Origin: Candidatus Eiseniibacteriota bacterium
Lineage (GTDB): Bacteria; Joyebacterota; Joyebacteria; Joyebacterales; Joyebacteraceae
Direction of reading: 5' to 3'
Assembly (NCBI GenBank): GCA_030595835.1
Contig: JAUVLG010000001.1
Span: forward strand, 4,614 to 68,613
Length of the DNA: 64,000 nucleotides
Within the stretch, counting starts at the first letter, position 1, and each line of letters opens with the position of its first letter. Below are positions 10,237 to 43,396 of the stretch, one piece after another. Position numbers and translations under genes: made by a program. Under the pieces are notes generated by a model, which had not been told where the DNA came from, made no database searches, and saw nothing but the letters and a program-made list of their open reading frames with translations.

Positions 10237-10248
10237 AGAGTCAGTCGC

Positions 10249-27781: not shown

Positions 27782-27801
27782 CACCGCCCCACCGGGGTGG
27801 T
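27782..27801 (+). terminator. Possible ftsY terminator hairpin
   Basis: CACCGCCCC-acc-GGGGTGGT stem-loop (8 bp including one G-U) directly after the ftsY stop. No U-tract. Confidence 0.25.
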
Positions 27802-27825
27802 AGATTCTCTAGTGACATCTGAATA

Positions 27826-27945: not shown

Positions 27946-28080
27946 GGCACGGTAGCAGTTTGTACTCGTGTCTCGTAGCGCCTCGAAGGATGTACGGGGC
28001 GCGTTTTCTTTGCCCGGCGGTGTTTCTCAGCGTCGCAGGGGATCCTTCTCACTGCTACATGAGGCGGTGGCGGTTTGAGT

Positions 28081-29262
28081 ATGACGACGAAGAACCGAGA
28101 CAGAACTCGCAGCGACGTCGACTCGTTCTTCATGAGCAGAGCATTCGAGCTGGCGAAGCGCGGGCGGGGCGCCACCAGTCCCAACCCGGTCGTCGGTGCG
28201 GTGATCGTCAGAGACGGCGAGATAGTTGGCAGCGGCTATCACGAGCGTTACGGGAGCGCGCACGCCGAGGTGAACGCTCTCGCTGAGGCCGGCGCGAGGG
28301 CATCCGGAGCCACGCTATACGTCACGCTGGAGCCGTGCTCTATCTCAGGTAAGACCCCGCCGTGCACGGACGCGATAGTTGCGGCGGGCATCGCCAGAAC
28401 CGTGGTTCCGGTCGAGGACCCGAACCCGAGAGTGTCAGGGGAGGGCATCTCGATCCTTCGAAATGCGGGGGTAGAGGTTGACCTTGGTCTGATGCACGAA
28501 GAAGCGCGGAGTCTGAACGCTGCGTACTTCAAGTATCGGAGTACGGGACTACCGTTCACCACGCTCAAGCTCGCGCTCTCACTGGACGGGCGCATCGCGC
28601 CGCCACCGGGCGGCACACGCTGGACCTCGTCCGAAGCGTCCCGCGAACTCGTACACGCAATGAGAGCAAAGGTCGACTGTGTGATGGTCGGCATAGGCAC
28701 GGTCCTGGCCGACGATCCGTTGTTAACTGACAGGCGGACCCGGACCGGTGGTCACGCGCCGGATGGCATGTCTCCCGACGGCGGCCCGCGGCAGCCGGCG
28801 CGGCTGGTACTGGACACGCACCTGCGCACTCCGCTCGAGTCGGCCATTGTCAGCGGCGCCCGTGATGTCCGGACCATCGTGGTGTGTCGTGAGAGCGCTG
28901 ATCCGTCGCGCCGCGCGCAGCTTGAGGGAGCCGGTGTCGCCGTGTGGAGTGCAGGCACTCTCGACGGAAGACTCGATCTGGACGTCGTCTTGAGGCGGGC
29001 GGCCGCCGAGGGACTCATCTCGGTGCTGTCCGAGGGTGGCGCTGGCGTTGCGAGCTCGCTCTTGAACGGAGGGTTCGTCGACCGCGTGGCGTTCTTCGTG
29101 ACGCCGAAACTGTACGGCGGCGGGGGGGTACCGGCACTTGGAACGCTGGACGACAGCTGGTGGAGCGAGCGCAGCAGACTGGTCAACGGAACGTGGACGG
29201 AGATTGGCGGTGACTGTCTGTTTGAGTCGGATGTGTTTGCCTCGGACGGGGAGCCCGTCTAA
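28081..29262 (+). CDS. ribD: Bifunctional riboflavin biosynthesis protein RibD (deaminase/reductase)
   Basis: FFMSRAFELAKRGRGATSPNPVVGAVIVRDGEIVGSGYHERYGSAHAEVNAL...YVTLEPC deaminase motifs, then the C-terminal reductase domain. ATG at 28081; the track's TTG start is at 28075. Confidence 0.85.
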   Translation: MTTKNRDRTRSDVDSFFMSRAFELAKRGRGATSPNPVVGAVIVRDGEIVGSGYHERYGSAHAEVNALAEAGARASGATLYVTLEPCSISGKTPPCTDAIVAAGIARTVVPVEDPNPRVSGEGISILRNAGVEVDLGLMHEEARSLNAAYFKYRSTGLPFTTLKLALSLDGRIAPPPGGTRWTSSEASRELVHAMRAKVDCVMVGIGTVLADDPLLTDRRTRTGGHAPDGMSPDGGPRQPARLVLDTHLRTPLESAIVSGARDVRTIVVCRESADPSRRAQLEGAGVAVWSAGTLDGRLDLDVVLRRAAAEGLISVLSEGGAGVASSLLNGGFVDRVAFFVTPKLYGGGGVPALGTLDDSWWSERSRLVNGTWTEIGGDCLFESDVFASDGEPV

Positions 29263-29274
29263 GGAGAGCCCTTG

Positions 29275-29946
29275 ATGTTCACAGGTCTCGTGGAGTGCAA
29301 GGGAAGAGTCGTGTGGATGCGTCGGGTGGCCGGCGCGGCGATCATTCGGATCACGGCACCCTTCGCTTCCGAACTCGAGCAAGGCGAGAGCGTGTCGGTG
29401 AAGGGCGTCTGCCAGACGGTCGTCCGGTCCGACGCCGCCGGGTTCGAGGTCGAGGCCGTGGCCCAGACGCTTGCGGTCACGACGCTCGGGGAGTTGGGGA
29501 GTGGCGACGAAGTGAACCTCGAACGCGCGCTCAGACTGGGCGACAGGCTCGGTGGCCACATGGTCGCCGGGCACGTGGACGGCGTCGCCCGCGTTCTGGA
29601 ACTCCGCAGCGACAGGGACGGGACTCGGCTGACGCTGGAACTGCCCGCTCCGCTTGTTCGGTACGTCGTGGCGCGTGGTTCCATCGCGGTGGACGGTGTC
29701 AGTCTGACGGTGGCGGAGGTATCGGGCGAGCGAGTGACCGTGGCTCTGATCCCGGAGACGCTGCGAGCCACAGGGGCCGCTTCGTACGAACCCGGCATGA
29801 AGGTCAACATAGAGACGGACATTCTGGCGAAACACCAGGAGAAACTGCTCGAACGACAGGGTGAAGCATCGGGCCCGCCGGACGGGAAGAAGAGCGCAGG
29901 CGGGTTGACAGAGAAACGACTCAGGGAACTGGGATTCATGGAGTGA
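29275..29946 (+). CDS. ribE: Riboflavin synthase (alpha chain)
   Basis: MFTGLVE start and two lumazine-binding repeats. AAGGAGAG ribosome-binding site 6 nt upstream of ATG 29275. Confidence 0.85.
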
Positions 29947-29951
29947 GGATC

Positions 29952-31208
29952 ATGAAGGAAAGACTCCGTACGGTTACGGCCGCGATCGAGGACATCCGTC
30001 AGGGCAAGATGATCATCGTGGTCGACGATGAGACAAGGGAGAACGAGGGCGACCTGATCATGGCCGCCGAGAAGGTGACGCCCGAAGCGATCAACTTCAT
30101 CTCCCGGGAGGGCCGGGGACTCATCTGCGTGTCGATGACCGGCGCGCGCCTCGACGACCTCGATCTTCATCCAATGGTGGGGAAGAACACGTCGATAATG
30201 GGCACGGCCTTCGCCGTGTCGGTCGACGCGGTCAAGGGGACGACGACCGGCATCTCGGCGCACGACCGCGCGACCACCATCGAGGCTTTGGTCGCTCCCG
30301 CCACAAGGCCGTCCGACCTCGGGAGACCGGGCCACATTTTCCCGCTGCGCGCGAGTGAGGGAGGAGTCCTCAAGCGGGCCGGCCACACGGAGGCGGCGGT
30401 GGACCTGGCGAGACTGGCGGGTCTGGCGCCCGCCGGAGTGCTGTGCGAGATCATGGGTGAGGACGGGAGCATGGCGAGGATGCCGGAGCTCACGCGCATG
30501 GCCAAGCGCTTTGAGCTGGGCATCGTGAGCGTCCGCTCCATCATCGAGTACAGGCGGTCGACCGAGAGACTCGTGCACGCGGCCGCGCGGACGGTCCTGC
30601 CGACGAGGTACGGCGAGTTCGAGCTGGTGGTATACGAGAGCGACCTCGATCGTGACCCGCATCTCGCGCTGATCAAGGGGGAACCGGCGCCCGAGAAGGA
30701 CGTGCTGGTCCGGGTGCACTCCGAGTGTCTGACCGGCGACGTCTTCGGGTCGGCGCGGTGCGACTGCGGCGACCAGTTGGGACAGGCACTGGAAGCGATA
30801 GAGCGGGAGGGCGAGGGCGTCTTCCTCTACATGCGTCAGGAGGGGCGCGGGATCGGCCTTCTCAATAAGCTCAAGGCCTACGAACTCCAGGACAATGGTA
30901 GAGATACAGTGGAAGCCAACGAGGAGTTGGGCTTCGAAGCCGACCTGAGGGACTACGGGATCGGGGCGCAGATCCTTGCTGATATCGGAGTCCGTCGCAT
31001 AAGGCTCCTGACGAACAACCCGCGGAAGGTGGTAGGGCTGGAGGGCTACGGGCTGACGATCGTGGAGAGAGTGCCGATCGAGATAGAACCCACTGACAGG
31101 AACAGGCGCTATCTGACGACGAAGAAGGAGAAGCTGGGACATCTGCTGGAGCTGGAGAAGTGCGCCGTCTGCACGAGCGGCGGCTCTGGTCCGGAACGAG
31201 ACGAGTAA
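29952..31208 (+). CDS. ribBA: Bifunctional 3,4-dihydroxy-2-butanone-4-phosphate synthase / GTP cyclohydrolase II
   Basis: [29 protein letters not shown] (RibB) and [15 protein letters not shown]...[10 protein letters not shown] (RibA) motifs. The start could alternatively be GTG 29943. Confidence 0.9.
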
Positions 31209-31225
31209 CGGAGGGAACTGAAGAC

Positions 31226-31693
31226 ATGAGCAAGGTCTACGAGGGGAACATCACCGGTAAGGGACGGAAGTTCGCGATCGTCATCTCGCGGTTCAACGAA
31301 TTCGTCTCGCTCAGGCTTCTGGAAGGGGCGATGGACTGTCTGAGGAGGCACGGGACGGCCGACGATGACATCTCCGTTGCGTGGGTGCCGGGCGCCTTTG
31401 ACATCCCCGCGGTCGCCAAAAGAATGGGTGGCTCCGGGAGTTACGATGCGGTAATATGCTTGGGCGTGGTCATCCGTGGGGCGACCCCGCATTTTGACTA
31501 CGTGGCCTCGGAAGTTTCGAAGGGTGTTGCGCATGTGGCGGCGGAAACGGGTGTTCCTGCCGTCTTCGGAGTCGTGACGGCCGACAGCCTGGAACAGGCC
31601 ATCGAGCGCGCCGGGTCGAAGAGCGGAAACAGGGGATGGGACGCGGCGCAGTCGGCCATGGAACTGGCCGACCTCTACGCGTGTATGGAATAG
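31226..31693 (+). CDS. ribH: 6,7-dimethyl-8-ribityllumazine synthase
   Basis: [13 protein letters not shown]...WVPGAFDIP...[18 protein letters not shown] canonical motifs. ATG at 31226 follows GGAGGG. Confidence 0.9.
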
Positions 31694-31719
31694 TGGACGG
31701 CGAGAGGGGCGTTCCATTC

Positions 31720-32133
31720 ATGGACGTCAGAAGGGAAGGCCGCGAGCTCGCCGTGATGCTCCTGTATCGCGAGAAGCTGACGGGGCTTGCGGACCTGACG
31801 ATACCGGACATAGAGGATGTCAGCGCGGATGCAGTGCGATTCGCGGGCAAGCTCCTGTCCGGCGTGCGTTCCGATCTTCCGGCCATTGACGCCGCAATAT
31901 CCGAGGCGAGCGAGCACTGGGATATCTCCCGGATGGGCCTCGTGGATCTCGCGATGCTCCGTGTTGGTGTGTACGAGCTGCTCGAGCGGCCGGACACGCC
32001 GGTTGGCGTCATCATCAACGAGGCGGTGGAGATAGCCCGCAAGTTCAGTTCGGATGAATGCAGCAGGTTCGTCAACGGAGTCCTCGACCGGATAGCCGGG
32101 GACGTCAGAGGCGAGGTGAACACGGAGGACTGA
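31720..32133 (+). CDS. nusB: Transcription antitermination factor NusB
   Basis: 137-aa all-helical protein directly after ribH (conserved ribH-nusB pairing). ATG at 31720. Confidence 0.8.
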   Translation: MDVRREGRELAVMLLYREKLTGLADLTIPDIEDVSADAVRFAGKLLSGVRSDLPAIDAAISEASEHWDISRMGLVDLAMLRVGVYELLERPDTPVGVIINEAVEIARKFSSDECSRFVNGVLDRIAGDVRGEVNTED

Positions 32134-32142
32134 CAGACTCCC

Positions 32143-32868
32143 GTGCGATACGCCATTCTGAGCGACATACACGGCAACTACGAGGCCTTCACGGCGGTGC
32201 TCAAGGCAGTCGACGGGATGGACATCGATGATGTCGTTTGCCTCGGGGATGTTGTGGGCTACGGCGCCAATCCCAACGAGGTCGTTGAACTCGCGAGAAC
32301 GAGAGTCAGGGTGACCATCCTAGGCAACCATGACCAGGCGGCCGTGGACCCGGCCGAGGAAGCGCACTTCAACTCGTGGGCCGTGCAGGCCATCCGCTGG
32401 ACGCGCGACAGGCTGACCGCGGACAGCTTGGACTACCTCAGAAGCTTGGCTTACGAGAGCCTTCTTCCGGATGTCCGCTTCGTTCACGCGTCTCCGAGTG
32501 AGCCCGAGAAGTGGCGTTACATCCTGAGTCCCCAGGCGGCGGCGCGGGAATTCTCGACGTTCGAGGAGTCGTTCTGTTTCATCGGTCACTCGCACGTGCC
32601 TATGATAGTCCTGAGAACGGAAGTCGGGACCAGTGAACTGCTGGACGGCGAAGTAGCCCTGCCGGCGGGCGCGCGCGTGCTGATAAATGTTGGGAGCGTG
32701 GGGCAGCCGAGGAACGGCGATCCGCGCGCGAGCTTCGCGGTCCTGGATCTTGAGGACAGGAGCGCGCATCTGGTCCAGGTTCCGTACGACGTTGACGCGG
32801 CACGTGCCAAGATAGTCGAGGCTGGGTTGCCTCGATTTCTGGGGGACAGGCTCCTGCTCGGACAGTAG
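32143..32868 (+). CDS. Metallophosphoesterase (calcineurin-like, YfcE/MJ0936-type)
   Basis: Motifs ILSDIHGN, CLGDVVGYG, ILGNHD and GHSH. GTG start. Confidence 0.7.
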   Translation: MRYAILSDIHGNYEAFTAVLKAVDGMDIDDVVCLGDVVGYGANPNEVVELARTRVRVTILGNHDQAAVDPAEEAHFNSWAVQAIRWTRDRLTADSLDYLRSLAYESLLPDVRFVHASPSEPEKWRYILSPQAAAREFSTFEESFCFIGHSHVPMIVLRTEVGTSELLDGEVALPAGARVLINVGSVGQPRNGDPRASFAVLDLEDRSAHLVQVPYDVDAARAKIVEAGLPRFLGDRLLLGQ

Positions 32869-32889
32869 ACGGTCGACCGGAGGATGAAC

Positions 32890-33822
32890 ATGCTGACAGC
32901 AAGCGTCGGCGTGATGGCATACAACGAAGAGCAGAACATCGGCAAGCTCCTGACGGCACTCAAGGGACAGTCCCTCGAGAACGTGGAGATTCGCCAGATC
33001 ATCGTGGTGTCCAGCGGCTCGAGCGACCACACCGACGAGATAGTCGCCGAGTGCGCGGCGAAGGACGACCGGATATCGCTCATCAGGCAGGAACAGCGCA
33101 TGGGCAAGGCATCGGCCATCAATCTGTTCCTGGATGCGGCCGAAGCGGATATCTTCGTGCTTGAGAGCGGCGACACCATCCCTGCGCCCGATTGCGTGGA
33201 GCGCATGCTCGCGCCCTTCACCAACTCCGGCGTGGGCATGAGCGGGGGCAGACCCGTTCCCGTCGATGACCCGAACACATTCATGGGTTTCGTGGTCCAC
33301 ATGCTGTGGCGGCTCCACCACATGCTGGCGCTCAAGTCGCCGAAGCTGGGAGAGATGGTCGCTTTCCGGTCGTTTGTGAGATCTATCCCAGCGGATACCG
33401 CGGTGGACGAAGCCAGCATCGAGGCCCTCGTCATCGAGGAAGGACTGTCGCTGGCGTACGCGCACGATGCCATCGTCTACAACAAGGGGGCCGCGACGGT
33501 CGGCGATTTCCTCAAGCAAAGACGGCGCATCTACGCGGGGCACATCTGGCTGTCGAAGGTCCAGTCCTACGAGGTGTCGACCAAGAAGGTCGGCGGCATT
33601 CTCTCGGTTCTGCTGGAGGATCTCAAACCGACCCCGCGGACGCTTCTGTGGACAGCCGGCGGCGTGTTCCTGGAGTTCGTGGGACGCCTGCTGGGCGCCA
33701 TCGACTATCACGTCCTGAAGAGGAACCCCTACACGTGGGAAGTGTCCCACAGTACGAAGAACCTCGACGCGCCCGTGAGTCATGACAGCGGAGCGAGGGG
33801 GGCGGGGGCGCTCGATGGTTGA
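32890..33822 (+). CDS. Family 2 glycosyltransferase
   Basis: VGVMAYNEEQNI start with DxD-type GT-A fold features (ESGDTIP). ATG 32890 has better ribosome-binding-site spacing than 32884. Confidence 0.65.
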   Translation: MLTASVGVMAYNEEQNIGKLLTALKGQSLENVEIRQIIVVSSGSSDHTDEIVAECAAKDDRISLIRQEQRMGKASAINLFLDAAEADIFVLESGDTIPAPDCVERMLAPFTNSGVGMSGGRPVPVDDPNTFMGFVVHMLWRLHHMLALKSPKLGEMVAFRSFVRSIPADTAVDEASIEALVIEEGLSLAYAHDAIVYNKGAATVGDFLKQRRRIYAGHIWLSKVQSYEVSTKKVGGILSVLLEDLKPTPRTLLWTAGGVFLEFVGRLLGAIDYHVLKRNPYTWEVSHSTKNLDAPVSHDSGARGAGALDG

Positions 33823-34918
33823 GATCCTCGCGAAGATCCCATTCTACAAGCTGGCCCGCGCGACGGGGTGGCCCCGCGTGCTCCCGCTGAACCTGACGGT
33901 CAGCGTTACGTATCGCTGCAACTCCCGATGCCTCACGTGCAACGTCTACACAAAGGAAGCGGCTGAGTTTACGGTGGACGAGTTCGATCGGACCTTCCGG
34001 TCGCTCGGCCGCGCGCCGTACTGGTACACGATGAGCGGCGGCGAGCCCTTCCTTCGATCCGACCTGCCGGATATCTGCGCGAGTGCGTACCTGCACGGCA
34101 AGCCTAGGATAATCAACATACCGACCAACGGTCTCCTCTCGTCGCGAATACCCTCAATGGTCGAGGAGATCGCGCGGCGCTGCCCGAGAACACAGATCAT
34201 CATCAACCTCTCACTCGACGGCATAGAGGACGAGCACGACAGGATCAGGGGCGTTCCCGGCAGCTTCGAGAAGGCCGTCGAGACGTACCGCGGCCTGCGG
34301 GCTCTGAACGTCCCGAATCTTGCCTTGGGTGTTCACACCGTGATCTCAGTACACAACGTCGAGCGGATACCCGCAATCTATGAGCACATCACCCGGGAGC
34401 TCGCTCCCGACTCGTTCATCACGGAGATCGCGGAGGAACGAGTGGAACTCGAGACGATCGGCGCCTCGATAACACCGCCGGCGGATGCGTACGGCCGCGC
34501 CGTCGACTTCCTGATCGCGCGCATCAGGGAGCAGAGTTACTCGGGCATCTCGCGCATCACGCAATCGTTCCGGATCCGCTATTACGAACTGGTGAAGCGC
34601 TTCCTCGCTGCCGGCGGCCAGCCGATCCCGTGCTACGCGGGAGTGGCGTCGGCCCAGATCGCTCCGGATGGCCACGTGTGGTTCTGCTGCATCAAGGCCG
34701 AGTCGATGGGGAACCTGCGCGACGTGGATTACGACTTCCGCCGCATCTGGTACGGCGAGCCGGCGGTGGAGGAACGGAAGAGGGTCCGTGCAGGCGACTG
34801 TTCGTGTCCACTCGCGAACGCCGCCTACACGAACATGCTGATGCACGTGCCGACGGTCGCGGGCGTGGCCTTCGAGGTTGCAGCAGGACGGAGCGGTGGG
34901 AAGACAAGGAGAGCGTGA
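33815..34918 (+). CDS. Radical SAM enzyme with C-terminal SPASM/twitch-like cysteine cluster
   Basis: CX3CX2C motif YRCNSRCLTCNV plus GGEPFL. C-terminal extra cysteines: CYAGV...WFCC...GDCSCP. ATG overlaps the upstream GT2 stop (ATGGTTGA). Confidence 0.7.
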   Translation: MVEILAKIPFYKLARATGWPRVLPLNLTVSVTYRCNSRCLTCNVYTKEAAEFTVDEFDRTFRSLGRAPYWYTMSGGEPFLRSDLPDICASAYLHGKPRIINIPTNGLLSSRIPSMVEEIARRCPRTQIIINLSLDGIEDEHDRIRGVPGSFEKAVETYRGLRALNVPNLALGVHTVISVHNVERIPAIYEHITRELAPDSFITEIAEERVELETIGASITPPADAYGRAVDFLIARIREQSYSGISRITQSFRIRYYELVKRFLAAGGQPIPCYAGVASAQIAPDGHVWFCCIKAESMGNLRDVDYDFRRIWYGEPAVEERKRVRAGDCSCPLANAAYTNMLMHVPTVAGVAFEVAAGRSGGKTRRA

Positions 34919-34921
34919 GAA

Positions 34922-36061
34922 GTGGCCGTTTTTCTGGAGGAGATAGGACGCTACCGGCTGGAGGATGTGCGGAACGCGATAGGTCGGGCCCTGGACGAAC
35001 TGGGCGTGGACCTCTCGGGCAAGCGCACGGCGTTCATCAAGCCCAACCTCGTCATCGCCGCGAAGCCCGGGACGGCCGTCGTGACACACCCCGTGGTGGT
35101 CGAGGCGCTCGTCGGCGTACTGCGGGAGCGAGGACTCACGTCGATCTCGATGGGTGATGGACCGGGGGTCGGACTCGACGTCGAGAAGGTCTTCCGCGTG
35201 ACCGGGTACAGGAAGCTCTCCGAGCGCCTGGGTGTTGAACTCGTCAATCTCAACACCACGGAGCGACGGAAGAGGGAATGGAAGTACGGGGAGATGGGAG
35301 TTCCCGCGATAGTCGAGGACACCGACCTCTATGTCAACGTACCGAAGCTCAAGACGCACGGTTACACGAAGGTCACGCTTGCGGTCAAGAACCACAAGGG
35401 CCTGCTGTCCGAGGCCGACAAGAAGCGCGATCATCAGTTGGGGTTGCACGATCCTCTGGCCCAGCAGGCCACGATACGTCCCCCTGACCTCATCGTGCTG
35501 GACGGCATAACAGGAGTGGAGGGGGACGGCCCCCTCAACGGCAAGGTTGTGAAGTCGCGCGTCTTCGCGGTCGGCACCAACATGGTCGAGGTCGATGCGG
35601 TGGCCGCGCGTCTGATGGGGTTCGATCCTGCCGAGATAGAGCACCTGAGACTGGCGCACGAACTCGGCGTGGGCAACATGGACCCCGAGGTCAGGGGAGC
35701 AGCGCCCTCGAGGCAGTTTGAACCTGCCAACGAGGAGTTCGGCCGCGTCGCGAACATCTACTCGTGGCGCGATCCTACCGCGTGCTCCATGTGCATCGAC
35801 TCATTCAGCGGAGCGGCACACCTGGCGGTGCGCAAGCCGAAGTACTGGTTTACGCTGGTACCGAAGCTGGCGTACTGGGGCGTGTTCAAGAAGCTCCACA
35901 TCATCCAGGGGAAGGCGGCACGGCTTCCGGGTGAGCGCGGACGAGTCATCTGCCTCGGACAATGCACCCGCGACCTTGCGGAGAGCGAGGGCCTCACGCA
36001 CATAGCCGGGTGCCCACCGACGCCCGAGGAAGTGGCCGAGACTCTGAGGAAGGAACTCTAA
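34922..36061 (+). CDS. DUF362 domain protein (putative Fe-S protein)
   Basis: Hallmark AFIKPNLV motif near the N-terminus. C-terminal cysteines: CSMCID, CLGQC, GCPP. GTG start 3 nt after the radical-SAM stop. Confidence 0.6.
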   Translation: MAVFLEEIGRYRLEDVRNAIGRALDELGVDLSGKRTAFIKPNLVIAAKPGTAVVTHPVVVEALVGVLRERGLTSISMGDGPGVGLDVEKVFRVTGYRKLSERLGVELVNLNTTERRKREWKYGEMGVPAIVEDTDLYVNVPKLKTHGYTKVTLAVKNHKGLLSEADKKRDHQLGLHDPLAQQATIRPPDLIVLDGITGVEGDGPLNGKVVKSRVFAVGTNMVEVDAVAARLMGFDPAEIEHLRLAHELGVGNMDPEVRGAAPSRQFEPANEEFGRVANIYSWRDPTACSMCIDSFSGAAHLAVRKPKYWFTLVPKLAYWGVFKKLHIIQGKAARLPGERGRVICLGQCTRDLAESEGLTHIAGCPPTPEEVAETLRKEL

Positions 36062-36064
36062 CGC

Positions 36065-36919
36065 ATGGCGGCGACGGACAAGGACACCGGACTGGGAACC
36101 AGCTACGAGCGCATCGCCGTGGCGCGGCTCCTCGCGGGACTCGCTGAGAGGTACACCATCAGCAAGGTGCTCGAGGGCCCCACGGACGGCATAACAGGAA
36201 TCAGCGGGCTCAACAGCATTCCTCTCGCGCAGCGTGGTGCGTCCGTCGAACTCGTGCTCGGGGATCCCGACGAGGTCGTGCTTGCCGAGCGCGCCTGGGA
36301 GACGCTTGGTCTGAAGGACAGGGTCACGATTCGGGCGGCCGGCGGGGATTCTCTCGGGGTCGAGCCACGCTCCTACGATCTGGTGTGGAACTTCAACTCG
36401 CTTCCCATTGTCGCGTCGGCTGACGCACTTCTGGACGAGATGTGCGAGGCCAGCCGTGAATTCGTCATGGTCTTCGTTTCCAACACGTGGAACTACGGGT
36501 TCCCGATCCATCGCCTTCACCACAAGGTCGCGGGTGAACCATGGAGCCACGGGAACATCTCCGTGATGAACACACGAATGGTATCCGAGAGGCTCGAGCA
36601 GCGGGGATTCAAGATCATCGAGCGCCTGCTGGTCGACACCCCGTGGTGGCCGGACATCGATTCACCGATAGAGGAGGTCGCCGCGACCTTCCTTCCATTC
36701 CTCAAGAGGTTCGTCAGCGGTTCGAAGAGGCTGGAGAGGTACACCTGGACGATAGACACGCTCCCGTACTTCGACGAGGAGCGACTCGCCCGTCTCCTGT
36801 CCGACATCGAGAAGCACTTCGCGATAGAGAACACCGGATTCAAACCCCTCAAGATCTTCTTTGCGCACCACAGAGGCGTGCTCGCGCGGAGGACCGGGGG
36901 CGGGGAGGCGTCGGTTTGA
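36065..36919 (+). CDS. Hypothetical protein, possibly a degenerate class I methyltransferase-like fold
   Basis: VLEGPTDGITGISGL and DLVWNFNSL resemble methyltransferase motifs I and II only loosely. No firm family call. Confidence 0.35.
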   Translation: MAATDKDTGLGTSYERIAVARLLAGLAERYTISKVLEGPTDGITGISGLNSIPLAQRGASVELVLGDPDEVVLAERAWETLGLKDRVTIRAAGGDSLGVEPRSYDLVWNFNSLPIVASADALLDEMCEASREFVMVFVSNTWNYGFPIHRLHHKVAGEPWSHGNISVMNTRMVSERLEQRGFKIIERLLVDTPWWPDIDSPIEEVAATFLPFLKRFVSGSKRLERYTWTIDTLPYFDEERLARLLSDIEKHFAIENTGFKPLKIFFAHHRGVLARRTGGGEASV

Positions 36920-37959
36920 GTCGGCGACTCCGCATAACGCTCGGGATCATAGCGGGCGTTGTTCTCCTGGCACTCGCCCTGTGGGGCGTGGATGCGACCG
37001 AGCTTCGGAACAACATCGCCCGAGCGAAGGTCGGCTGGCTCGCCGCCGCCGCCGTTCTCTACCTCGCCGCGTACTTCGTGCGCAGTCTCAGATGGCGCGC
37101 CATTCTCCACCCAATCGTTCCTGTCCGCGTCTCCGAGAGCTTCCACATGCTCATGGCCGGGTATTTCCTCAACTACATCATCCCGATCAGAGCGGGGGAA
37201 GTGGCGAAGTCGTTCTTTCTGAAGAGGCTCAAGGGTGTGCCGATCGCGACGACCCTCCCGACGGTGTTTGTGGACAAACTGTTCGAACTCGTCTCGATCC
37301 TCTTCGTCGTCACCATGCTGCCGATACTCTCGATCAGCATGAGCGCGACGCTCGCCGCGCTGATCTACACCGTCCTGGCCATCTTCCTGCTGGCGATCGG
37401 GTTGCTCTTCTTCGCGTTTCGAAACCCGGACGGCGCCTCACGTCTTCTGTGCGCCCTGTTCTCGTGGATGCCCCACCGTGTCTACAGTAAGCTGTCCGAA
37501 TTCATCAGCCTCTTCGTGCAGGGCATGGGGGTCGCCAGACGTGAGGCCCGCACGCTCTGGATGTTTCTGGGGCTGACGGGCCTCGCCGTGCTCATCGACG
37601 GGCTCTACTTCTACTTCATGTTCAGGGCCTTTTCGGTCGATGTCGCCTTTACGAGAGTCCTCTTCGGGTATACTCTGCTGACGTTGTCGTACATCCTGCC
37701 GACGCCACCGGCACAGATCGGCTACAACGAGTTCGTGATAGGGCTGATCTTCGCGGGAGGAATCGCGGTGGGCGGTGTGGCCCGAGATGAGGTGATGGCA
37801 GTGGTCATAGTCGCACACGCGATGACGGGGCTTCTCATCGCAGGTGTCGGCATGTGGTCGTTTGGTGCGATGGGTATCAAGGTGAAAGAGAGCTTCAGGA
37901 GGGTGGCCGGCGTCGCAGGGGACGACGGCACGAAGAGCGGGAGGTCGGAGCGTGAGTGA
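36916..37959 (+). CDS. UPF0104/flippase-like domain membrane protein (MprF-N-terminal/AglD-like family)
   Basis: Polytopic. Motifs ALWGVDATELRNNIARAKVGWLAAA, LRWRAIL and YFLNYIIPIRAGEVAKSFFLKR are typical of the TIGR00374 flippase-like family. TTG start at 36916 overlaps the upstream stop (TTGA) and follows GGGGAGG. The track's 36541 start lies inside the previous gene. Confidence 0.6.
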   Translation: MSRRLRITLGIIAGVVLLALALWGVDATELRNNIARAKVGWLAAAAVLYLAAYFVRSLRWRAILHPIVPVRVSESFHMLMAGYFLNYIIPIRAGEVAKSFFLKRLKGVPIATTLPTVFVDKLFELVSILFVVTMLPILSISMSATLAALIYTVLAIFLLAIGLLFFAFRNPDGASRLLCALFSWMPHRVYSKLSEFISLFVQGMGVARREARTLWMFLGLTGLAVLIDGLYFYFMFRAFSVDVAFTRVLFGYTLLTLSYILPTPPAQIGYNEFVIGLIFAGGIAVGGVARDEVMAVVIVAHAMTGLLIAGVGMWSFGAMGIKVKESFRRVAGVAGDDGTKSGRSERE

Positions 37960-38932
37960 GATCGTCCTAGTGACTGGCGCGGCGGGTTTCGTGGGTTCGC
38001 ACGTCGTCGAGCGTTTGCTGGCGGACGGGAAGACCGTGCGCGGTGTGGACGCCTTCATCGACTACTACCCGCGGGCGGTCAAGGAAGAGAATCTCAGGGC
38101 GGCGATGGAGAGCGATTCCTTCGAGCTCGTCGAGGCCGACCTGGCGGTGGCGGATCTCACGCCTATCCTCGAAGGGGTGACGTCGGTTTGTCATCTGGCC
38201 GCGCAGGCCGGGGTCCGTGCCAGTTGGGGAACGACCTTCTCCACCTACATCGACTGCAATATCCTGTCGAGCCAGCGCCTTCTCGAAGCGGTCAAGGACC
38301 GAGCGCTCTCGAGGTTCGTGTACGCGTCCAGCTCATCAGTCTACGGCGAGACGACGGACCTTCCGATGCGGGAGAATGGGCTGACGTGTCCCGTGTCTCC
38401 TTACGGTGTGACGAAGCTGGCGGCCGAGCACCTCGCGGTTCTTTACAATCGGAACTACGGCGTGCCGACGGTGTCGCTCAGGTACTTCACCGTCTACGGT
38501 CCGCGGCAGCGGCCCGACATGGCGTTCCACCGTTTCATCCGCTCGGGGCTTCTGGGCGAGCCGATTACGATCTTCGGTAACGGCCATCAGACGCGCGACT
38601 TCACGTATGTGGGCGACATCGTCGCCGCGACCGTGGCGGCCCTGGAATCGGGGCCCGAGGGAGGTGTGCTGAACGTCGGAGGCGGAAGTCGTGTCACACT
38701 CAATGAGGCACTGGACGCCATAGAGAGCACTCTCGGTATCAAATTGGAGAGGCGGTACATCGAGCGCGCCAGAGGAGATGTTACGGACACACTGGCGGAC
38801 AATTCGAGGGCGAGGGACATGCTCGGCTTCCGTCCGACCGTGGGGCTCGAGGAAGGTCTGGCGCTCGAACGCGGATGGATGGAATCGGCCGTGCTGACGC
38901 CTGGTGCAGCCGCGAACGAGGAGGCTAGCTGA
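37952..38932 (+). CDS. NAD-dependent nucleotide-sugar 4-epimerase (GalE/WbpP-like SDR)
   Basis: VLVTGAAGFVGSHVVERLL, SSSSVYGE and PYGVTKLAAE (YxxxK). GTG start. Confidence 0.75.
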   Translation: MSEIVLVTGAAGFVGSHVVERLLADGKTVRGVDAFIDYYPRAVKEENLRAAMESDSFELVEADLAVADLTPILEGVTSVCHLAAQAGVRASWGTTFSTYIDCNILSSQRLLEAVKDRALSRFVYASSSSVYGETTDLPMRENGLTCPVSPYGVTKLAAEHLAVLYNRNYGVPTVSLRYFTVYGPRQRPDMAFHRFIRSGLLGEPITIFGNGHQTRDFTYVGDIVAATVAALESGPEGGVLNVGGGSRVTLNEALDAIESTLGIKLERRYIERARGDVTDTLADNSRARDMLGFRPTVGLEEGLALERGWMESAVLTPGAAANEEAS

Positions 38933-38935: not shown

Positions 38936-39889
38936 ATGGACATCTCTGTCGTAATACCGTTGCTGAACGAGGCCGACAGCCTGAGGGAGCTCTACGAACG
39001 CATCGACGACGCGCTCGGCCCTCTCGGCCGCGAATGGGAAGTGATCTTCATCAACGATGGAAGCACCGACTCCTCGATGGACGTTCTGCGCAGCCTTCAC
39101 GAGGAGAAGGAGAACGTCAGGGTGCTCGTGTTCGGGAGAAACCTCGGCAAGTCGGCCGCGCTCAGTGTGGGTTTCAAGGAAGCCGTGGGAGACGTCGTTT
39201 TCACCATGGACGCCGATCTACAAGATGACCCCGCGGAGCTGCCTGTGATGCTCAAGATGATAGAGAGCGGGTACGACCTCGTGTCGGGATGGAAGAAGGA
39301 GCGCAGGGACCCACTCTCGAAGCGGCTCCCGTCGAAGCTCTACAACGCGGTGACCGGGAGGCTGTCCGGCGTCGGGATCCACGACATGAACTGCGGACTC
39401 AAGGCGTACCGCAAGCAGGTCGTGAAGACCATCCGGGTGTACGGCGAACTCCACCGCTACACGCCCGTCCTGGCACAGTGGGCGGGCTTCACGGTGACCG
39501 AGGTTGTGGTCAAACACCACGCTCGCAAGCACGGACGCTCGAAGTTCGGCGCGGAGCGCTTCCTCAGAGGCTTCTTCGACCTCCTGACGGTGCTATTCCT
39601 GCGACGCTACATCACAAGACCACTCCACCTCTTCGGGATGTTGGGTGGGGTGCTCTTCTCAGGCGGGTTCCTGGCGGGGCTCTACCTCACGATCCTGAAG
39701 ATCATGGGGCAGGCGATAGGCCGCAGGCCCCTCCTGACGCTCGCGATTCTTCTTATGGTCGTCGGTGTGCAGTTCGTCTCGTTGGGACTCCTGGGAGAGA
39801 TGCTGGCAAATCTCAGAGGGGACGACATCTCGTACCCACTGAGGGAGCGTCTCGGGCGGAAGGACGGTGGGCTTGGCGATAAGTCCTGA
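38936..39889 (+). CDS. Polyprenyl-phosphate glycosyltransferase (GT2, GtrB/ArnC/Dpm1-like with two C-terminal TM helices)
   Basis: ISVVIPLLNEADSL...FINDGSTD...TMDADLQDDP GT-A motifs. C-terminal TM pair: LFGMLGGVLFSGGFLAGLYL and LLTLAILLMVVGVQFVSLGLLG. Confidence 0.75.
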   Translation: MDISVVIPLLNEADSLRELYERIDDALGPLGREWEVIFINDGSTDSSMDVLRSLHEEKENVRVLVFGRNLGKSAALSVGFKEAVGDVVFTMDADLQDDPAELPVMLKMIESGYDLVSGWKKERRDPLSKRLPSKLYNAVTGRLSGVGIHDMNCGLKAYRKQVVKTIRVYGELHRYTPVLAQWAGFTVTEVVVKHHARKHGRSKFGAERFLRGFFDLLTVLFLRRYITRPLHLFGMLGGVLFSGGFLAGLYLTILKIMGQAIGRRPLLTLAILLMVVGVQFVSLGLLGEMLANLRGDDISYPLRERLGRKDGGLGDKS

Positions 39890-41075
39890 GAAGAGCTCGT
39901 CAGCGGACGCGCCTCTCGGATCCGATGCGAGCGCGCGGATCGCCATTGTCGGTCCGGCATATCCTCTGAGGGGTGGCAACGCGCTCTTCGTGGCGCACCT
40001 CTACGACAGCCTGCGGCTTGACCACGACGCCTATGTCGTCTCATTCAGACGGCTGTACCCCTCGCTGCTCTTCCCGGGCAAGACACAGATGAACCTGAGC
40101 CACGACCCCGTCAAGAGCACGCCGTCGCGGCAGATGATCGACTCGGTGAATCCGTTCTCCTGGATTGAGGCGGTCCGGTGGATAACTCAGCCGAAGAGAC
40201 AACCGGACCTGGTAGTCTTCGTTTGGTGGAACCCGTTCTTCGGGGTCTGCTATGGCGCCATGGCACGGATGCTGAGGCGGAAGCTCGGCCACCGCGTCAT
40301 GTTCGTGTGTGAGAACGTCGTATCGCACGAGAATAGATTCGTCGATCGATTCCTGACGAGATTCGCGCTGAGCGCGGCAGACTACTTCATGGTTCTCTCT
40401 GGAGTGGTCGCCAGCCGTGTCCACTCGCTCTTCCCGAGGACGCCGGTGCGACAAGCGGCCCTGCCGATCTACACCTGCTACAATCCGTCCGGTGTCGACC
40501 GCGATGCGGTACGGGAATCGCTTGGGCTCACGCGGCCGACCGTGCTCTTCTTCGGTTACGTCCGTGAGTACAAGGGTCTTGCTTACTTGCTGCGCGCGAT
40601 GCCCATGATACTCGAGGAGATCGACGTTGACCTCCTCGTGGTCGGCGAGTTCTACGACGACCGCTCCAAGTACGACCACATCATAGAGAAACTGGACATA
40701 GGGAAGCGCGTCCGCGTCGTAGCGGAGCACGTCCCGGATGAAGCCGTCGGCAACTATTTCGGAGCAGCGGATGTGGCGGTCCTGCCGTACGTCTCAGCCA
40801 CGCAGAGCGGTATTACACAGATAGCCTTTGCCTTCGGGCTTCCCGTGATAAGCACGAACGTCGGTGGGCTGCCCGAGGTGGTGCGGGAAGGGGAAACGGG
40901 CTATATTGTAGAGCCTGGGGACGAGCGGAAGCTCGCCCGCGCGATCGTGCGCTACTTCACCGCCGGAGACGCTCCGCGGATGAGAGCGAACGTGGCCGTG
41001 GAGGCGCAGCGTGATCACGCTGGTGACCTGATGCGGAGGGCCGTGCAGGACTTTCTCGAGATGGCGAGGTCTTAG
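39867..41075 (+). CDS. Family 4 (GT-B) glycosyltransferase
   Basis: C-terminal GT4 motif ...ADVAVLPYVSATQSGITQIAFAFGLPVISTNVGGLPEVV...GYIVEP. GTG start overlaps the previous gene by 23 nt. Confidence 0.75.
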   Translation: MGLAISPEKSSSADAPLGSDASARIAIVGPAYPLRGGNALFVAHLYDSLRLDHDAYVVSFRRLYPSLLFPGKTQMNLSHDPVKSTPSRQMIDSVNPFSWIEAVRWITQPKRQPDLVVFVWWNPFFGVCYGAMARMLRRKLGHRVMFVCENVVSHENRFVDRFLTRFALSAADYFMVLSGVVASRVHSLFPRTPVRQAALPIYTCYNPSGVDRDAVRESLGLTRPTVLFFGYVREYKGLAYLLRAMPMILEEIDVDLLVVGEFYDDRSKYDHIIEKLDIGKRVRVVAEHVPDEAVGNYFGAADVAVLPYVSATQSGITQIAFAFGLPVISTNVGGLPEVVREGETGYIVEPGDERKLARAIVRYFTAGDAPRMRANVAVEAQRDHAGDLMRRAVQDFLEMARS

Positions 41076-41076: not shown

Positions 41077-41973
41077 GTGCGGGATCCCCTGGTCCGGGCG
41101 GTGGTGATCAACTGGAACGGCAGGGAGGTTCTCGAGCCGTGTCTGCGGACACTGCTGGCCTCATCATACCCGAACCTCTCGGTGCTGGTTGTGGACAACG
41201 CATCCACCGACGGCTCCGCGCAGTTCGTGCGTGACGAGTTCCCATCCGTCAGTGTGTCCGAGCAGAGCTCAAATCTCGGCTTCGCGGCGGGAGTGAACGT
41301 AGGGCTGAAGGCAGCGCTCGAAGAAGGGGCTGACTACGTACTGCTCCTGAACAACGACATCGAACTGGACGGCGATGCTGTGAGTGCGCTCGTCGAGGCT
41401 GCGCTCGCGCATCCGGAGAGTGCATTCGTAGGTCCCTTGATCTACTACGCCGACCGGCCTTCGGTCATATGGTCGGCGGGCGGTGCGGTGTCCTTCTGGA
41501 CGGGAAACATACGTCACCTCGGCCTTCGTGAAGAGGACGCGGGACAGTACGCCGAAGTGCGGGAGGTCGACTACGTCACGGCTTGTGCCGTGCTCGCGTC
41601 AGCGAAAGCGGTCAGTGCGATCGGCCTGATGGACGAAGCCTACTACATGTACAACGAGGACACGGACTGGTGTATCCGTGCCGGAGATGCAGGCTTCGGC
41701 GTGCTTTTCGCTCCGAGCGCGAGGATCTGGCACAAGGTCTCGATGAGCTCGGGCGGCGGACTGACGCCTTTCAAAATATACCACCGGCTGCGCAGCACCC
41801 TCAGGTTCTTCTCCCTGCACGCGCGGCTCTATCACTGGCTCGGGATCGTCCCCTTCACTGTAGCTCGCACCCTGTGTTTCGCGGTCCGTGAGCTGGCTGG
41901 AGGAAAGGGCGCCAACGTAACCGCGGTCCTGCGCGGTACGTGGGACTCGATGACGCGACAAAGGAGAACCTAG
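41077..41973 (+). CDS. Family 2 glycosyltransferase (rhamnosyltransferase-like)
   Basis: AVVINWNGREVLEPCL...VVDNASTDGS...LNNDIEL...YMYNEDTDWC motifs. GTG start 2 nt after the upstream stop. Confidence 0.75.
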   Translation: MRDPLVRAVVINWNGREVLEPCLRTLLASSYPNLSVLVVDNASTDGSAQFVRDEFPSVSVSEQSSNLGFAAGVNVGLKAALEEGADYVLLLNNDIELDGDAVSALVEAALAHPESAFVGPLIYYADRPSVIWSAGGAVSFWTGNIRHLGLREEDAGQYAEVREVDYVTACAVLASAKAVSAIGLMDEAYYMYNEDTDWCIRAGDAGFGVLFAPSARIWHKVSMSSGGGLTPFKIYHRLRSTLRFFSLHARLYHWLGIVPFTVARTLCFAVRELAGGKGANVTAVLRGTWDSMTRQRRT

Positions 41974-41977: not shown

Positions 41978-43396
41978 ATGCCCCTTCATTTCACGGGGCC
42001 GCGGCGTGCGGTCCAGAGCAACTCCCCATGTGGGTCAACTGCCGCGTTCGTCCTGACGGCGGTCCTTCTGCTGACACTGCTGCTCGCGGTCGCCGGGTGC
42101 TCGAACGACGAGGCGCCCGTTGCGACACCGTGCCTCCTGTTCTTTGGAGTGGACGCTGGCAACTGGAACATCCTCACACCAATGATGCAGGCAGGTGAGC
42201 TGCCGACACTCACGTCACTGGTCAACAGGGGCTCGTATGGGATCCTGAAATCCGGTGTTCCGATCCAGTCGCCACAGATGTGGACCTCGATAGCTACAGG
42301 CGTCACCCCCGAGAAGCACGGCATCATGCGGTTCACTGCCGAGATCCCGGGAACGGGCCGCGAGGTTCCAGTGACGAGCAACATGAGGAAGGTGAAGGCT
42401 TTCTGGAACATCCTCTCGGAGGCGGACATCACAGTCGGGATAGTGGGGTGGTGGCCCAGCTGGCCCGCGGAGCCGGTCAACGGCTTCATGATCGCCCAGC
42501 GTGCCTGGCCGGTCAACTGGAGTCGGCACGGGATCCCCTTCGGCGCGGCCCGCGATGCGTCGGGCCGTTTGATAGTGGAGCATTTCGAGGGTCGGACCTA
42601 CCCTGAAGAACTGTACGCGGAGTTCGAGCCGTTCATCCTCACCGAGGAGGACGTTACCAGAGACGACCTCGCGCTCCTCTTCTCGGACCCGGCGTTCACG
42701 CCTCCCGTCAAGCAGTTCCACGCCCGCTGGGTGTTCGCGAAGGACAAGACTTTCGCCGATGCGGGTCTGGCAATGCTCAAGCGGTACACGCCGGACGTGT
42801 TCGCGGTCTACCTCCAGGGTACCGACGTCGTCTCCCACTACTACTGGGGCTATCAGCGCGAGGAAGGCTTCACGGTGGCTCCGGCCGACGAGCGGCTCTA
42901 CGGAGGCGTGGTGCGCAACTACTACCGCTACGTCGACGGCGTGATCGCGCGCTATCTGGCGGAGGCCGGAGAGAACACGACGGTCATGGTAGTGTCCGAT
43001 CACGGCTTCGAGACCAAGCGCGACCTCAAGGAGCTCTGGGAGAGGGGCGAGAAGATCCGGACCGAGGAGGGCGGGAAGGACGTGCCGTGGGACCACGGCG
43101 TGGACGGCATCTTCATAATGGCCGGTCCGGGTATCAAGAAGGACAACAGGCTCCCTGACATGTCAGTCGTGGACGTGACACCCACGCTGCTGGCGTACCT
43201 CGGCCTTCCCGTGGCCGAGGACATGGACGGCGCCGCGGAACTCGCGATGTTCGAGGCTTCCTTCCTGGAGGCGAACCCGGTGGCCACCATCTCGACCTAC
43301 GAAACCGGCGGCCCCGGAGGCGATGAGGCTCCGATGGAATCGCCGATGGACGATGGTATCAAAGAGAAGCTGCGGGCACTCGGCTACATAGAGTAG
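41978..43396 (+). CDS. NPP-family (type I phosphodiesterase / nucleotide pyrophosphatase, AlkP superfamily) lipoprotein
   Basis: Lipobox LLAVAGC. MWTSIATGVTPEKHGIM matches the ENPP nucleophile region (HYSIVTGLYPESHGII). VMVVSDHGF metal site. C-terminal ...KLRALGYIE. Confidence 0.65.
   Translation: MPLHFTGPRRAVQSNSPCGSTAAFVLTAVLLLTLLLAVAGCSNDEAPVATPCLLFFGVDAGNWNILTPMMQAGELPTLTSLVNRGSYGILKSGVPIQSPQMWTSIATGVTPEKHGIMRFTAEIPGTGREVPVTSNMRKVKAFWNILSEADITVGIVGWWPSWPAEPVNGFMIAQRAWPVNWSRHGIPFGAARDASGRLIVEHFEGRTYPEELYAEFEPFILTEEDVTRDDLALLFSDPAFTPPVKQFHARWVFAKDKTFADAGLAMLKRYTPDVFAVYLQGTDVVSHYYWGYQREEGFTVAPADERLYGGVVRNYYRYVDGVIARYLAEAGENTTVMVVSDHGFETKRDLKELWERGEKIRTEEGGKDVPWDHGVDGIFIMAGPGIKKDNRLPDMSVVDVTPTLLAYLGLPVAEDMDGAAELAMFEASFLEANPVATISTYETGGPGGDEAPMESPMDDGIKEKLRALGYIE

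Follow-up and report, generated by a model that had tools for sequence, protein, structure and literature searches.

Several systems that edit membrane-anchored sugars have been described. The gpgSDF operon encodes a glycosyltransferase, a deacetylase and a UPF0104 protein (PMC12713373), UPF0104 corresponding to the flippase domain of MprF (bioRxiv 10.1101/2022.03.11.483950). Polyprenyl-phosphate-linked pentoses are epimerised by a short-chain dehydrogenase/reductase (SDR) or by DprE1/DprE2 before their export to a GT-C-type glycosyltransferase (PMC11127046), and the radical S-adenosylmethionine (SAM) enzymes HpnJ and Cds edit lipid-bound sugars (PMC13459092). Here we describe a 64-kb window of a Candidatus Eiseniibacteriota genome (contig JAUVLG010000001.1), whose closest homologues are annotated as Candidatus Eisenbacteria. 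It encodes a pair formed by a family-2 glycosyltransferase (GT2a, 312 aa, 32884–33822) and a radical-SAM enzyme (367 aa, 33815–34918), followed by genes for a DUF362 protein, a methyltransferase-fold protein and a UPF0104 membrane protein. We propose that this locus is a 'synthase, tailoring, flippase' unit for a membrane-anchored sugar, a model to which, taken as a whole, we assign a probability of roughly 45%. Coordinates follow the numbering of the window, meaning the entire 64-kb stretch analysed, and all genes of the module are on the plus strand.

A first-pass annotation, based on the letters of the sequence, had proposed that the four packed plus-strand genes at 33815–37959, from the radical-SAM to the UPF0104 gene, form a module. 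All four open reading frames were recovered at these positions, and their placement within a glycan locus was borne out by the surrounding glycosyltransferase, SDR, flippase and dehydratase genes. The conserved unit is, however, not this four-gene set but the radical-SAM gene together with the upstream GT2a gene, which the annotation had left out. To compare genomes, we scanned one genome per species with peptide patterns taken from the radical-SAM protein of the window, which biases the sample towards closer relatives, and obtained 61 loci, with extra contexts added from protein look-ups. Genes in the fetched loci were called with a caller weighted by GC content at third codon positions, and counts were taken from tblastn tables and all-against-all clustering of the called genes, with coverage thresholds that may miss divergent partners. 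GT2a and the radical-SAM gene are adjacent in 22 of 22 Eisenbacteria-type loci. Of the 36 loci that come from other phyla or from one archaeon, 24 have GT2a directly 5′ of the radical-SAM gene. These 24 loci belong to Actinomycetota, Dormibacterota, Chloroflexota, Cloacimonadota, a Portnoybacteria genome of the candidate phyla radiation, contig L068 and the archaeon Methanoperedens. Identity to the window proteins in these other lineages is 41–56% for GT2a and 50–60% for the radical-SAM enzyme, the latter reaching 58–60% in the Chloroflexota and Methanoperedens homologues.

Within Eisenbacteria-type genomes (radical-SAM identity 68–88%), synteny extends in all 22 informative loci over a 12-gene block running from a metallophosphoesterase gene to a GT9 gene; such conservation reflects vertical inheritance and carries little information on function. 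The main exception to the pairing is a set of about six Chloroflexota loci with 47–50% radical-SAM identity, which lack GT2a and are flanked by HpnJ/BchE-like B12 radical-SAM genes, and this subgroup probably has a different function. Five of its members (L052, L053, L054, L056 and L062) have one to three such flanking genes, and a sortase gene is found in L052 and L056. In one actinobacterial branch the radical-SAM family comprises at least 4,705 cluster representatives at E ≤ 1e-60, and those listed are all metagenomic. The plasmid collection contained only distant relatives (24–29% identity), next to glycosyltransferases or in an extracellular polysaccharide locus. Two of these, at 27–29% identity, are on a Parabacteroides plasmid (L071, 6926–9403) and a Pseudobutyrivibrio plasmid (L072, 3498–11522); one is beside a protein annotated for lipid glycosylation, and the other is in an extracellular polysaccharide locus with GT4, acyltransferase and pyruvyl-transferase genes.

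The radical-SAM gene starts at an ATG (33815) within the last codons of GT2a and overlaps the GT2a stop, as the first-pass annotation had noted, here a TGA with an overlap of 8 nt; this start agrees with the N-termini of homologues. Its product passes the Pfam Radical_SAM model (PF04055, 58.3 bits, cut-off 29.5) comfortably and the SPASM model barely (24.9 bits, cut-off 21.5). A CNSRCLTC motif provides the CX3CX2C cysteines C35, C39 and C42, which are invariant in 42 homologues. In the alignment of homologues, C273, C291, C329 and C331 are likewise invariant, as is a TEIAEER motif at residues 203–209, and C292 is kept in at least 90%. Only about 25 residues, forming one N-terminal helix, precede the core. 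The auxiliary pattern, CX12GX4C...CXC, corresponds to the first half of a SPASM domain followed by a stump. We rejected a full SPASM domain with two auxiliary clusters and the seven-cysteine pattern CX9-15GX4C...CX2CX5CX3C...C, since the second half is reduced to C329-X-C331 and four invariant cysteines are present. The earlier description of the C-terminal cysteine clusters as twitch/SPASM-like is therefore kept in its twitch-like part, with four cysteines for one cluster, and dropped for the full SPASM domain. We predict a truncated, twitch-like SPASM domain with ligands for a single cluster, in a pattern that we take to resemble that of BtrN. Cysteine number and spacing agree with a twitch domain, and SkfB, MoaA and BtrN, themselves twitch-type enzymes, are among the fold matches; the score against the N_Twi_rSAM model (NF033640) was just 44 bits vs a cut-off of 170.

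The AlphaFold2 model of the radical-SAM enzyme (predicted local distance difference test score, pLDDT, 93) aligns with solved radical-SAM cores. Its Foldseek neighbours, at 14–19% identity, are BlsE, SkfB, SuiB, anSME, MoaA, DesII, viperin and BtrN. BlsE has the highest TM-score among solved structures (0.62/0.69) and is the best full-length structural match. Sequence and profile matches to solved structures (BlsE, SkfB and MoaA) are limited to the common radical-SAM core; SkfB is the best of these (E 6e-14), and the BlsE match (E 6.5e-10, 19% identity) covers residues 29–193 only. A search against NCBIfam returned 46 weak matches, each far under its cut-off (ScmE 69.8/400, MftC 49/265, PqqE 46/381 and HpnH 37/225 bits), and assigned no family, and the sugar radical-SAM families BtrN, DesII, BlsE and AprD4 were not among the best 25 of these 46 matches. 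Judged by these sequence comparisons, the enzyme is a family of its own.

GT2a matches PF00535 (86.8 bits) and, over residues 7–217, PF13641, and its homologues share the invariant residues D97, QRRR (212–215) and GH (219–220). The best solved relative is 6yv7, matched over the whole catalytic domain (profile E 1.3e-22), which we take to be an archaeal mannosyltransferase that is associated with the membrane and has a minimal cellulose-synthase-like fold. The QRRR motif is typical of the cellulose-synthase-like branch, and GT2a is predicted to be a minimal family-2 enzyme of this type. No transmembrane (TM) helix passes the Kyte–Doolittle threshold (best 19-residue window 1.37), a hydrophobic helix at residues 253–273 is conserved, and the protein plausibly works at the membrane surface. 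GtrB, DPMS and ArnC match GT2a only over the first ~115 profile positions. An assignment to the GtrB/ArnC/DPMS type of polyprenyl-phosphate GT2 was rejected on the basis of these partial matches, the QRRR motif and the lack of C-terminal TM helices. By contrast, a second GT2 of the locus, the ArnC/GtrB-like GT2b (317 aa, 38936–39889), fits the polyprenyl-phosphate type, with 201.6 bits against ArnC (cut-off 529), 152 bits against PgfS and two C-terminal TM helices at about residues 232–291.

The genes that accompany the pair differ between lineages. An extended SDR gene lies directly 3′ of the radical-SAM gene in 13 of 30 non-Eisenbacteria loci. Five of these SDRs were scanned, and each had its best scores (142–185 bits) against HpnA, OleD or SdmB, families that act on lipid-type substrates, with GalE at 49–69 bits. 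Nine of the 30 have a UPF0104 homologue after the radical-SAM and SDR genes, a GtrA-family protein takes the UPF0104 position in two Streptosporangiaceae loci (L028 and L031), and PMT_2 (GT-C) genes are found within about 6 kb of the pair in seven loci (L005, L033, L038, L039, L042, L063 and L068). These recurring lipid-type ketoreductases, two unrelated kinds of lipid flippase and GT-C enzymes fit a sugar that is first joined to a lipid anchor by GT2a and then edited and exported. A radical-SAM enzyme with a single auxiliary cluster beside a ketoreductase suggests one of two courses: an alcohol is oxidised and then reduced again with inverted stereochemistry, or a rearrangement ends in a ketone. 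DUF362 genes are near the radical-SAM gene in three of the 30 loci only, namely those of Methanoperedens (47% identity), L068 (40%) and Portnoybacteria (27%), the first two being the only ones with at least 40% identity. Orthologues of the methyltransferase-fold gene lie beside GT2a or the radical-SAM gene in the Methanoperedens locus (L001), L005 and L043.

Some of these loci show further arrangements. Eight from Actinomycetota and Dormibacterota (L033, L036, L038, L040, L042, L059, L060 and L067) have three to five tandem HpnA/OleD-like SDR paralogues after the radical-SAM gene, usually with a UPF0104 gene and sometimes with a classical SDR. Contig L068 (1–14008) is a glycan locus dense in genes of radical chemistry and carries, in this order, PMT_2, GT2a, radical-SAM, Metallophos (YaeI/LpxG-like), DUF362, DUF362 with a ferredoxin insert, GT2, B12 radical-SAM, GT2, B12 radical-SAM and PMT_2 genes. 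The UbiA genes near the pair in L001, L005, L043 and L046 reached no NCBIfam cut-off, and we claim no link for them.

The DUF362 protein (379 aa, 34922–36061) begins 3 nt after the radical-SAM gene and scores 155.8 bits against PF04015 (gathering score 24) over residues 38–230. It carries the AFIKPNLV motif and the C-terminal cysteines C288, C291, C344, C348 and C364, of which C288, C348 and C364 stay invariant in homologues with as little as 31% identity and C291 is replaced in three; K144-T145-H146, K156 and H171 are invariant as well. A sequence search against solved structures gave no match and the fold search alone was informative, placing in the AlphaFold2 model (pLDDT 93) an N-terminal LarA-like domain and a C-terminal domain similar to NuoB and the small subunit of [NiFe]-hydrogenase. 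The C-terminus reads GCPPTPEEV, and its GCPPxPE stretch aligns with GCPPKPE of NdhK at a non-significant E of 1.7; CxxC...C...GCPP is presumably the proximal-cluster motif of NuoB and hydrogenase small subunits. The conserved cysteines and the fold agree with the first-pass annotation in pointing to an iron-sulfur protein, here predicted to have an additional large, enzyme-like domain. Because this domain resembles the substrate/cofactor domain of LarA, the protein looks like an enzyme rather than a plain electron carrier. DUF362 and DUF2088, the N-terminal domain of LarA, share the Pfam clan CL0471 (PMC11770544), and fusions of DUF362 to CBM9 and dockerin domains are described in the literature. 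Identity to the nickel-pincer 2-hydroxyacid racemases of the LarA/DUF2088 type is only 10–14%, with no match at the sequence level, and LarA lacks the NuoB-like domain with its predicted [4Fe-4S] cluster.

The methyltransferase-fold protein (284 aa, 36065–36919) follows after another 3 nt. Its only Pfam match is Methyltransf_25, at 19.1 bits vs a cut-off of 27, and its matches in the Protein Data Bank have E ≥ 0.1. The motif I position reads VLEGPxDGxTG, which is non-canonical, and it is conserved together with GLGTxYER, FDLVWNF, HRLHH, PWWPDI and AHH, several of them rich in histidine; the Methanoperedens orthologue has a precomputed Methyltransf_11 match. The UPF0104 (PplT, MprF-type) protein (347 aa, 36916–37959) is best started at the TTG at 36916, rather than at 36541, which gives a 4-nt overlap with the preceding stop. 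With 140.9 bits against PF03706 (cut-off 33.4), 89.7 bits against TIGR00374 (cut-off 43.2) and several hydrophobic TM helices, it is, by sequence, a clear member of the MprF flippase-domain family, as had been proposed, and its flippase activity is predicted. An extended SDR of the nucleotide-sugar type (326 aa, 37952–38932) overlaps the UPF0104 gene by 8 nt. Its NCBIfam scores (LegB 154, GalE 149, RmlB 143 and HpnA only 73 bits) indicate that it is not orthologous to the HpnA/OleD-like SDRs located after the radical-SAM gene elsewhere, and it probably makes the donor sugar for GT2b.

The model that we favour builds on the gene content, domain architecture, cysteine patterns, synteny and co-occurrence observed above, with all functions assigned from gene context and fold. 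From these we infer the acceptor, the reaction of each enzyme and the order of the steps, and our confidence in any specific reaction is much lower than in the model as a whole. As a peripheral protein at the inner face of the membrane, GT2a would glycosylate a lipid-anchored acceptor with a sugar taken from a nucleotide donor; candidates for this acceptor are polyprenyl phosphate, a glycan linked to polyprenyl and a membrane lipid. The translationally coupled radical-SAM enzyme, with one auxiliary [4Fe-4S] cluster, would then edit the attached sugar at the cytoplasmic face through hydrogen abstraction by a 5′-deoxyadenosyl radical, the likeliest outcome being that a secondary alcohol is oxidised to a ketone, or that an unactivated carbon undergoes inversion or rearrangement. 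In most phyla, an NAD(P)H-dependent reductase of the HpnA/OleD type encoded next door could complete this step. Eisenbacteria, Methanoperedens and L068 have no such reductase, and there the DUF362 protein may supply the complementary step, a redox reaction or an epimerisation that draws on a one-electron carrier; the presence of DUF362 where the SDR is missing is suggestive, the pattern not being strict. The methyltransferase-fold protein might add a further decoration. Finally, the UPF0104 protein would flip the finished lipid-linked sugar outward, where it could be used by a GT-C of the locus or stay as a surface glycolipid.

Several observations weigh against this model. At least eight loci, among them those of Cloacimonadota and L003, carry the pair with no flippase, SDR or DUF362 gene nearby, and DUF362 and an adjacent SDR are not strictly exclusive, since L048 holds both. 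In the window, the UPF0104 gene adjoins the canonical SDR and the ArnC-like GT2b and may serve these two. GT2a lacks a predicted TM helix and its acceptor could be soluble, the methyltransferase assignment remains under the Pfam threshold, and the peptide maturases SkfB and SuiB are among the fold neighbours of the radical-SAM enzyme at scores similar to the others.

Part of this evidence would also be expected if the locus held two independent neighbours, GT2a with the radical-SAM gene on the one hand and, on the other, the DUF362, methyltransferase-fold and UPF0104 genes working with the SDR, GT2b and GT4 as a conventional three-component system for a polyprenyl-phosphate sugar. Such a division is conceivable, though we think it rather unlikely. 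It is supported by contig L069, which encodes homologues of GT2b (57%) and GT4 (44%), an SDR, two DUF362 proteins (one at 41%, the second with a ferredoxin insert), Wzx and PMT_2, and has neither the radical-SAM gene nor GT2a. The rarity of DUF362 in the non-Eisenbacteria radical-SAM loci agrees with it, as does the window itself, where the UPF0104 gene overlaps the SDR start and GT2b comes next. Yet in Methanoperedens both DUF362 and the methyltransferase-fold gene are within 2 kb of the pair and no GT2b or GT4 homologue was detected there, the DUF362 gene of L068 is two genes after the radical-SAM gene, and in L005 and L043 the methyltransferase-fold gene accompanies GT2a or the radical-SAM gene without DUF362. 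The UPF0104 genes that follow the radical-SAM and SDR genes in nine loci mostly do so without an ArnC-like GT2.

Two other explanations place the radical chemistry on a different substrate. In the scheme of the first-pass annotation, the radical-SAM enzyme would tailor a soluble uridine diphosphate (UDP)- or deoxythymidine diphosphate (dTDP)-sugar, the DUF362 protein would be its dedicated reductant and GT2a would transfer the finished sugar. The fold search did place the sugar-acting BlsE first among solved structures, DesII and BtrN were matched too, the DUF362 protein has a predicted [4Fe-4S] domain and the operon includes a nucleotide-sugar-type SDR. We nevertheless consider this scheme distinctly unlikely. 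The resemblance to BlsE, at 19% identity, lies mainly in the common radical-SAM core, no nucleotidyltransferase or nucleotide-sugar enzyme is conserved with the pair, and the SDRs beside the radical-SAM gene elsewhere are of the HpnA/OleD rather than the GalE/RmlB type. Flippase or GtrA genes come directly after them, and together with the GT-C genes and the cellulose-synthase-like GT2 such neighbours point to a lipid-linked sugar. Conservation of the radical-SAM/DUF362 pairing, on which the annotation had staked its proposal, is largely lacking: 27 of the 30 non-Eisenbacteria loci are without DUF362, the 41% homologue in L069 occurs without a radical-SAM gene, and a simple electron donor would not need a large LarA-like domain. 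A peptide system, in which the radical-SAM enzyme modifies or cross-links a peptide that GT2a glycosylates, as in glycocins and sactipeptides, is very improbable. It could be suspected from SkfB as the best sequence and profile match among solved structures, from the peptide maturases among the best NCBIfam matches and from a weak match of GT2a to SunS (E 4e-5). Against it, all NCBIfam scores are far below cut-off, which also places the enzyme outside known peptide-maturase and cofactor families, a point in favour of the annotation. With genes only −8 to +3 nt apart, a precursor gene could not be fitted in, and the locus lacks a protease, an exporter and a peptide-recognition domain. We therefore rejected membership of the maturases of ribosomally synthesised and post-translationally modified peptides (SkfB, SuiB, PqqE, MftC and ScmE), the single helix in the ~25 residues before the core counting against it as well. 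An identity of 58–60% between bacteria and an archaeon would be unusual for a peptide maturase, and glycan and lipid genes are the neighbours in every lineage.

Returning to lipid-linked sugar tailoring, one narrower version is worth stating, although we regard it as a long shot. The radical-SAM enzyme and its variable partner, an HpnA/OleD-like SDR or, in Eisenbacteria and Methanoperedens, DUF362, could form an oxidise-then-reduce couple that is independent of oxygen and flavin and that epimerises or deoxygenates the lipid-attached sugar, as an anaerobic counterpart of DprE1/DprE2. If true, this would provide the first function for DUF362 and the first radical-SAM step in a pathway for lipid-linked glycan donors.

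Upstream of the module, ribD, ribE, ribBA, ribH and nusB (28075–32133, plus strand) are followed by a gene for a metallophosphoesterase (241 aa, 32143–32868) with weak NCBIfam matches to YfcE-family phosphodiesterases, directly 5′ of GT2a. The order ribH, nusB, (metallophosphoesterase), GT2a, radical-SAM is shared between Eisenbacteria (31160–34918) and the Cloacimonadota loci (L035, L041 and L044, about 8200–11100), which have no other glycan genes nearby, and it hints at a housekeeping rather than a strain-variable role. We rejected the metallophosphoesterase as a conserved member because it has no detectable kinship to the Metallophos genes of L035 and L068, the latter situated between the radical-SAM and DUF362 genes, and its membership in the module is uncertain. 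The sole strong sigma-70-like match between 27.5 and 47.4 kb (27778–27806, plus strand; TTGACA, 17 nt, TAGATT, with an upstream TG) is in the 293-nt gap 5′ of ribD, so that the riboflavin genes, nusB and the glycan genes may be co-transcribed. In the same promoter and terminator scan, terminator-like sites were no more frequent than in shuffled sequences.

Downstream of GT2b, the plus strand continues with a GT4 (39867–41075), a third GT2 (41077–41973), an alkaline-phosphatase-family protein (41978–43396) and a GT9 (43427–44533). Further glycan genes encode a Wzx-like flippase, a YfhO-like membrane protein, a GT2, a GT2-Bac_transf fusion, a PglF-like dehydratase and a DegT aminotransferase. 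The YfhO-like protein (791 aa, 47731–50106, plus strand) matches Pfam YfhO at its C-terminus only (residues 713–772, E 2.5e-14) and, as a candidate GT-C, would act on the lipid-linked sugar after it has been flipped. A PglF-like 4,6-dehydratase, a DegT-family aminotransferase and a GNAT/FemAB-like acyltransferase cluster at 54460–58147 (plus strand) and probably constitute a branch of this locus for amino or diamino sugars. Amid the glycan genes, an open reading frame at 53065–54456 (plus strand) encodes Reg_prop repeats and a Por_Secre_tail domain, the C-terminal sorting domain of type IX secretion.

Lipid and pentose genes occur elsewhere in the window. A gene of the PcrB/geranylgeranylglyceryl-phosphate-synthase family (3855–4652, plus strand; TIGR01769 212.9 vs 161.6 bits, NF003198 283.4 vs 247) overlaps the end of alaS, placing an archaeal-type ether-lipid enzyme in an Eisenbacteria-like genome. 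This gene recalls the potential for archaeal ether lipids that has been reported for bacteria of the Fibrobacteres–Chlorobi–Bacteroidetes group (PMC7852524). A UbiA-family protein (7950–8840, plus strand) passes the cut-off for decaprenyl-phosphate phosphoribosyltransferase (NF008977, 264.7 vs 234), and its gene is 1.5 kb upstream of prs, encoding phosphoribosyl pyrophosphate synthetase (10342–11325). Together these two genes suggest a donor pathway for polyprenyl-phosphate ribose, a pentofuranose; no DprE1 or DprE2 homologue was seen in the window.

We found no curated family, solved structure or paper covering the GT2a/radical-SAM pair, and our literature search returned no paper that joins DUF362 with radical SAM. 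Neither the pair, with its twitch-type radical-SAM enzyme, nor the LarA-like/NuoB-like architecture of DUF362 is described in the literature that we found. Uncharacterised radical-SAM genes have been noted before in glycan loci of anaerobes, for example on a Brachyspira plasmid (PMC4267127), so that such genes are not unique to the present locus. A 2026 review on radical-SAM enzymes that modify lipids covers Tes, Mss, Gms, GrsA/B, Gmm, Cds, HpnH/J/P/R, Jaw5 and the ladderane enzymes (PMC13459092), none of which, by description, resembles the pair. The pair is abundant across bacterial phyla and present in one archaeon, yet unstudied, and GT2a with the radical-SAM enzyme is the unit worth study. 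Should it edit lipid-linked sugars, radical chemistry would join the known routes by which envelope glycans and glycolipids are diversified, and DUF362, a large family for which we found no assigned function, would gain a testable role. It would also explain how anaerobes reach sugar configurations for which aerobes rely on flavin- or oxygen-dependent enzymes.

The proposed unit works like several known systems and is a member of none of them. Calditol synthase Cds and the hpnI-hpnJ-hpnK-hpnL genes, the latter for the hopanoid cyclitol-ether head group, share with it the order in which a GT2 glycosylates a membrane lipid and the bound sugar is then edited by a radical-SAM enzyme. The radical-SAM step of these systems has been described (PMC13459092). 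A further likeness is provided by the HpnA-like SDRs beside the radical-SAM gene in other phyla. HpnL is, we assume, a UPF0104 protein encoded alongside hpnI-hpnJ-hpnK. Unlike the twitch-like enzyme of the window, which has no B12 domain, HpnJ is a B12-binding radical-SAM protein. Hpn equivalogs scored low against the window proteins (HpnH 37/225, HpnA 73/368 and HpnB 33/379 bits, no match to HpnL or HpnJ), and no hopanoid genes were seen in the window. Orthology of the radical-SAM enzyme to HpnJ or Cds was rejected, as it lacks a B12 domain and an equivalog score, Cds being set apart without direct sequence comparison. BtrN, DesII and BlsE, like the window enzyme, combine a radical-SAM core with a short C-terminal auxiliary domain. 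They are, however, only 14–19% identical to it, match in sequence only in the shared core, and act on soluble antibiotic intermediates without a GT2 partner. To our knowledge, no three-component glycosylation system uses a radical-SAM enzyme. In GtrA/B/C, ArnC/D/E/F/T and the UndP-Ribf pathway (with the SDR ORF13 or DprE1/E2, and a GT-C), a polyprenyl-phosphate sugar is made and edited in the cytoplasm, flipped and used by a GT-C (PMC11127046), and the GtrA-like or UPF0104 genes and the PMT_2 or YfhO-like genes near GT2a and the radical-SAM gene recall this arrangement. GtrB and ArnC have two C-terminal TM helices, whereas GT2a lacks these and has a QxxR-type motif instead. The gpgSDF operon of Pseudomonas aeruginosa, for glucosamine-phosphatidylglycerol, and hexSDF of Clostridioides difficile follow the same logic as proposed here, with a glycosyltransferase, a cytoplasmic tailoring enzyme and a UPF0104 protein (PMC12713373). 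Those operons use a GT4 as synthase and a deacetylase for tailoring, whereas the window combines a GT2 with radical-SAM, DUF362 and methyltransferase-fold proteins.

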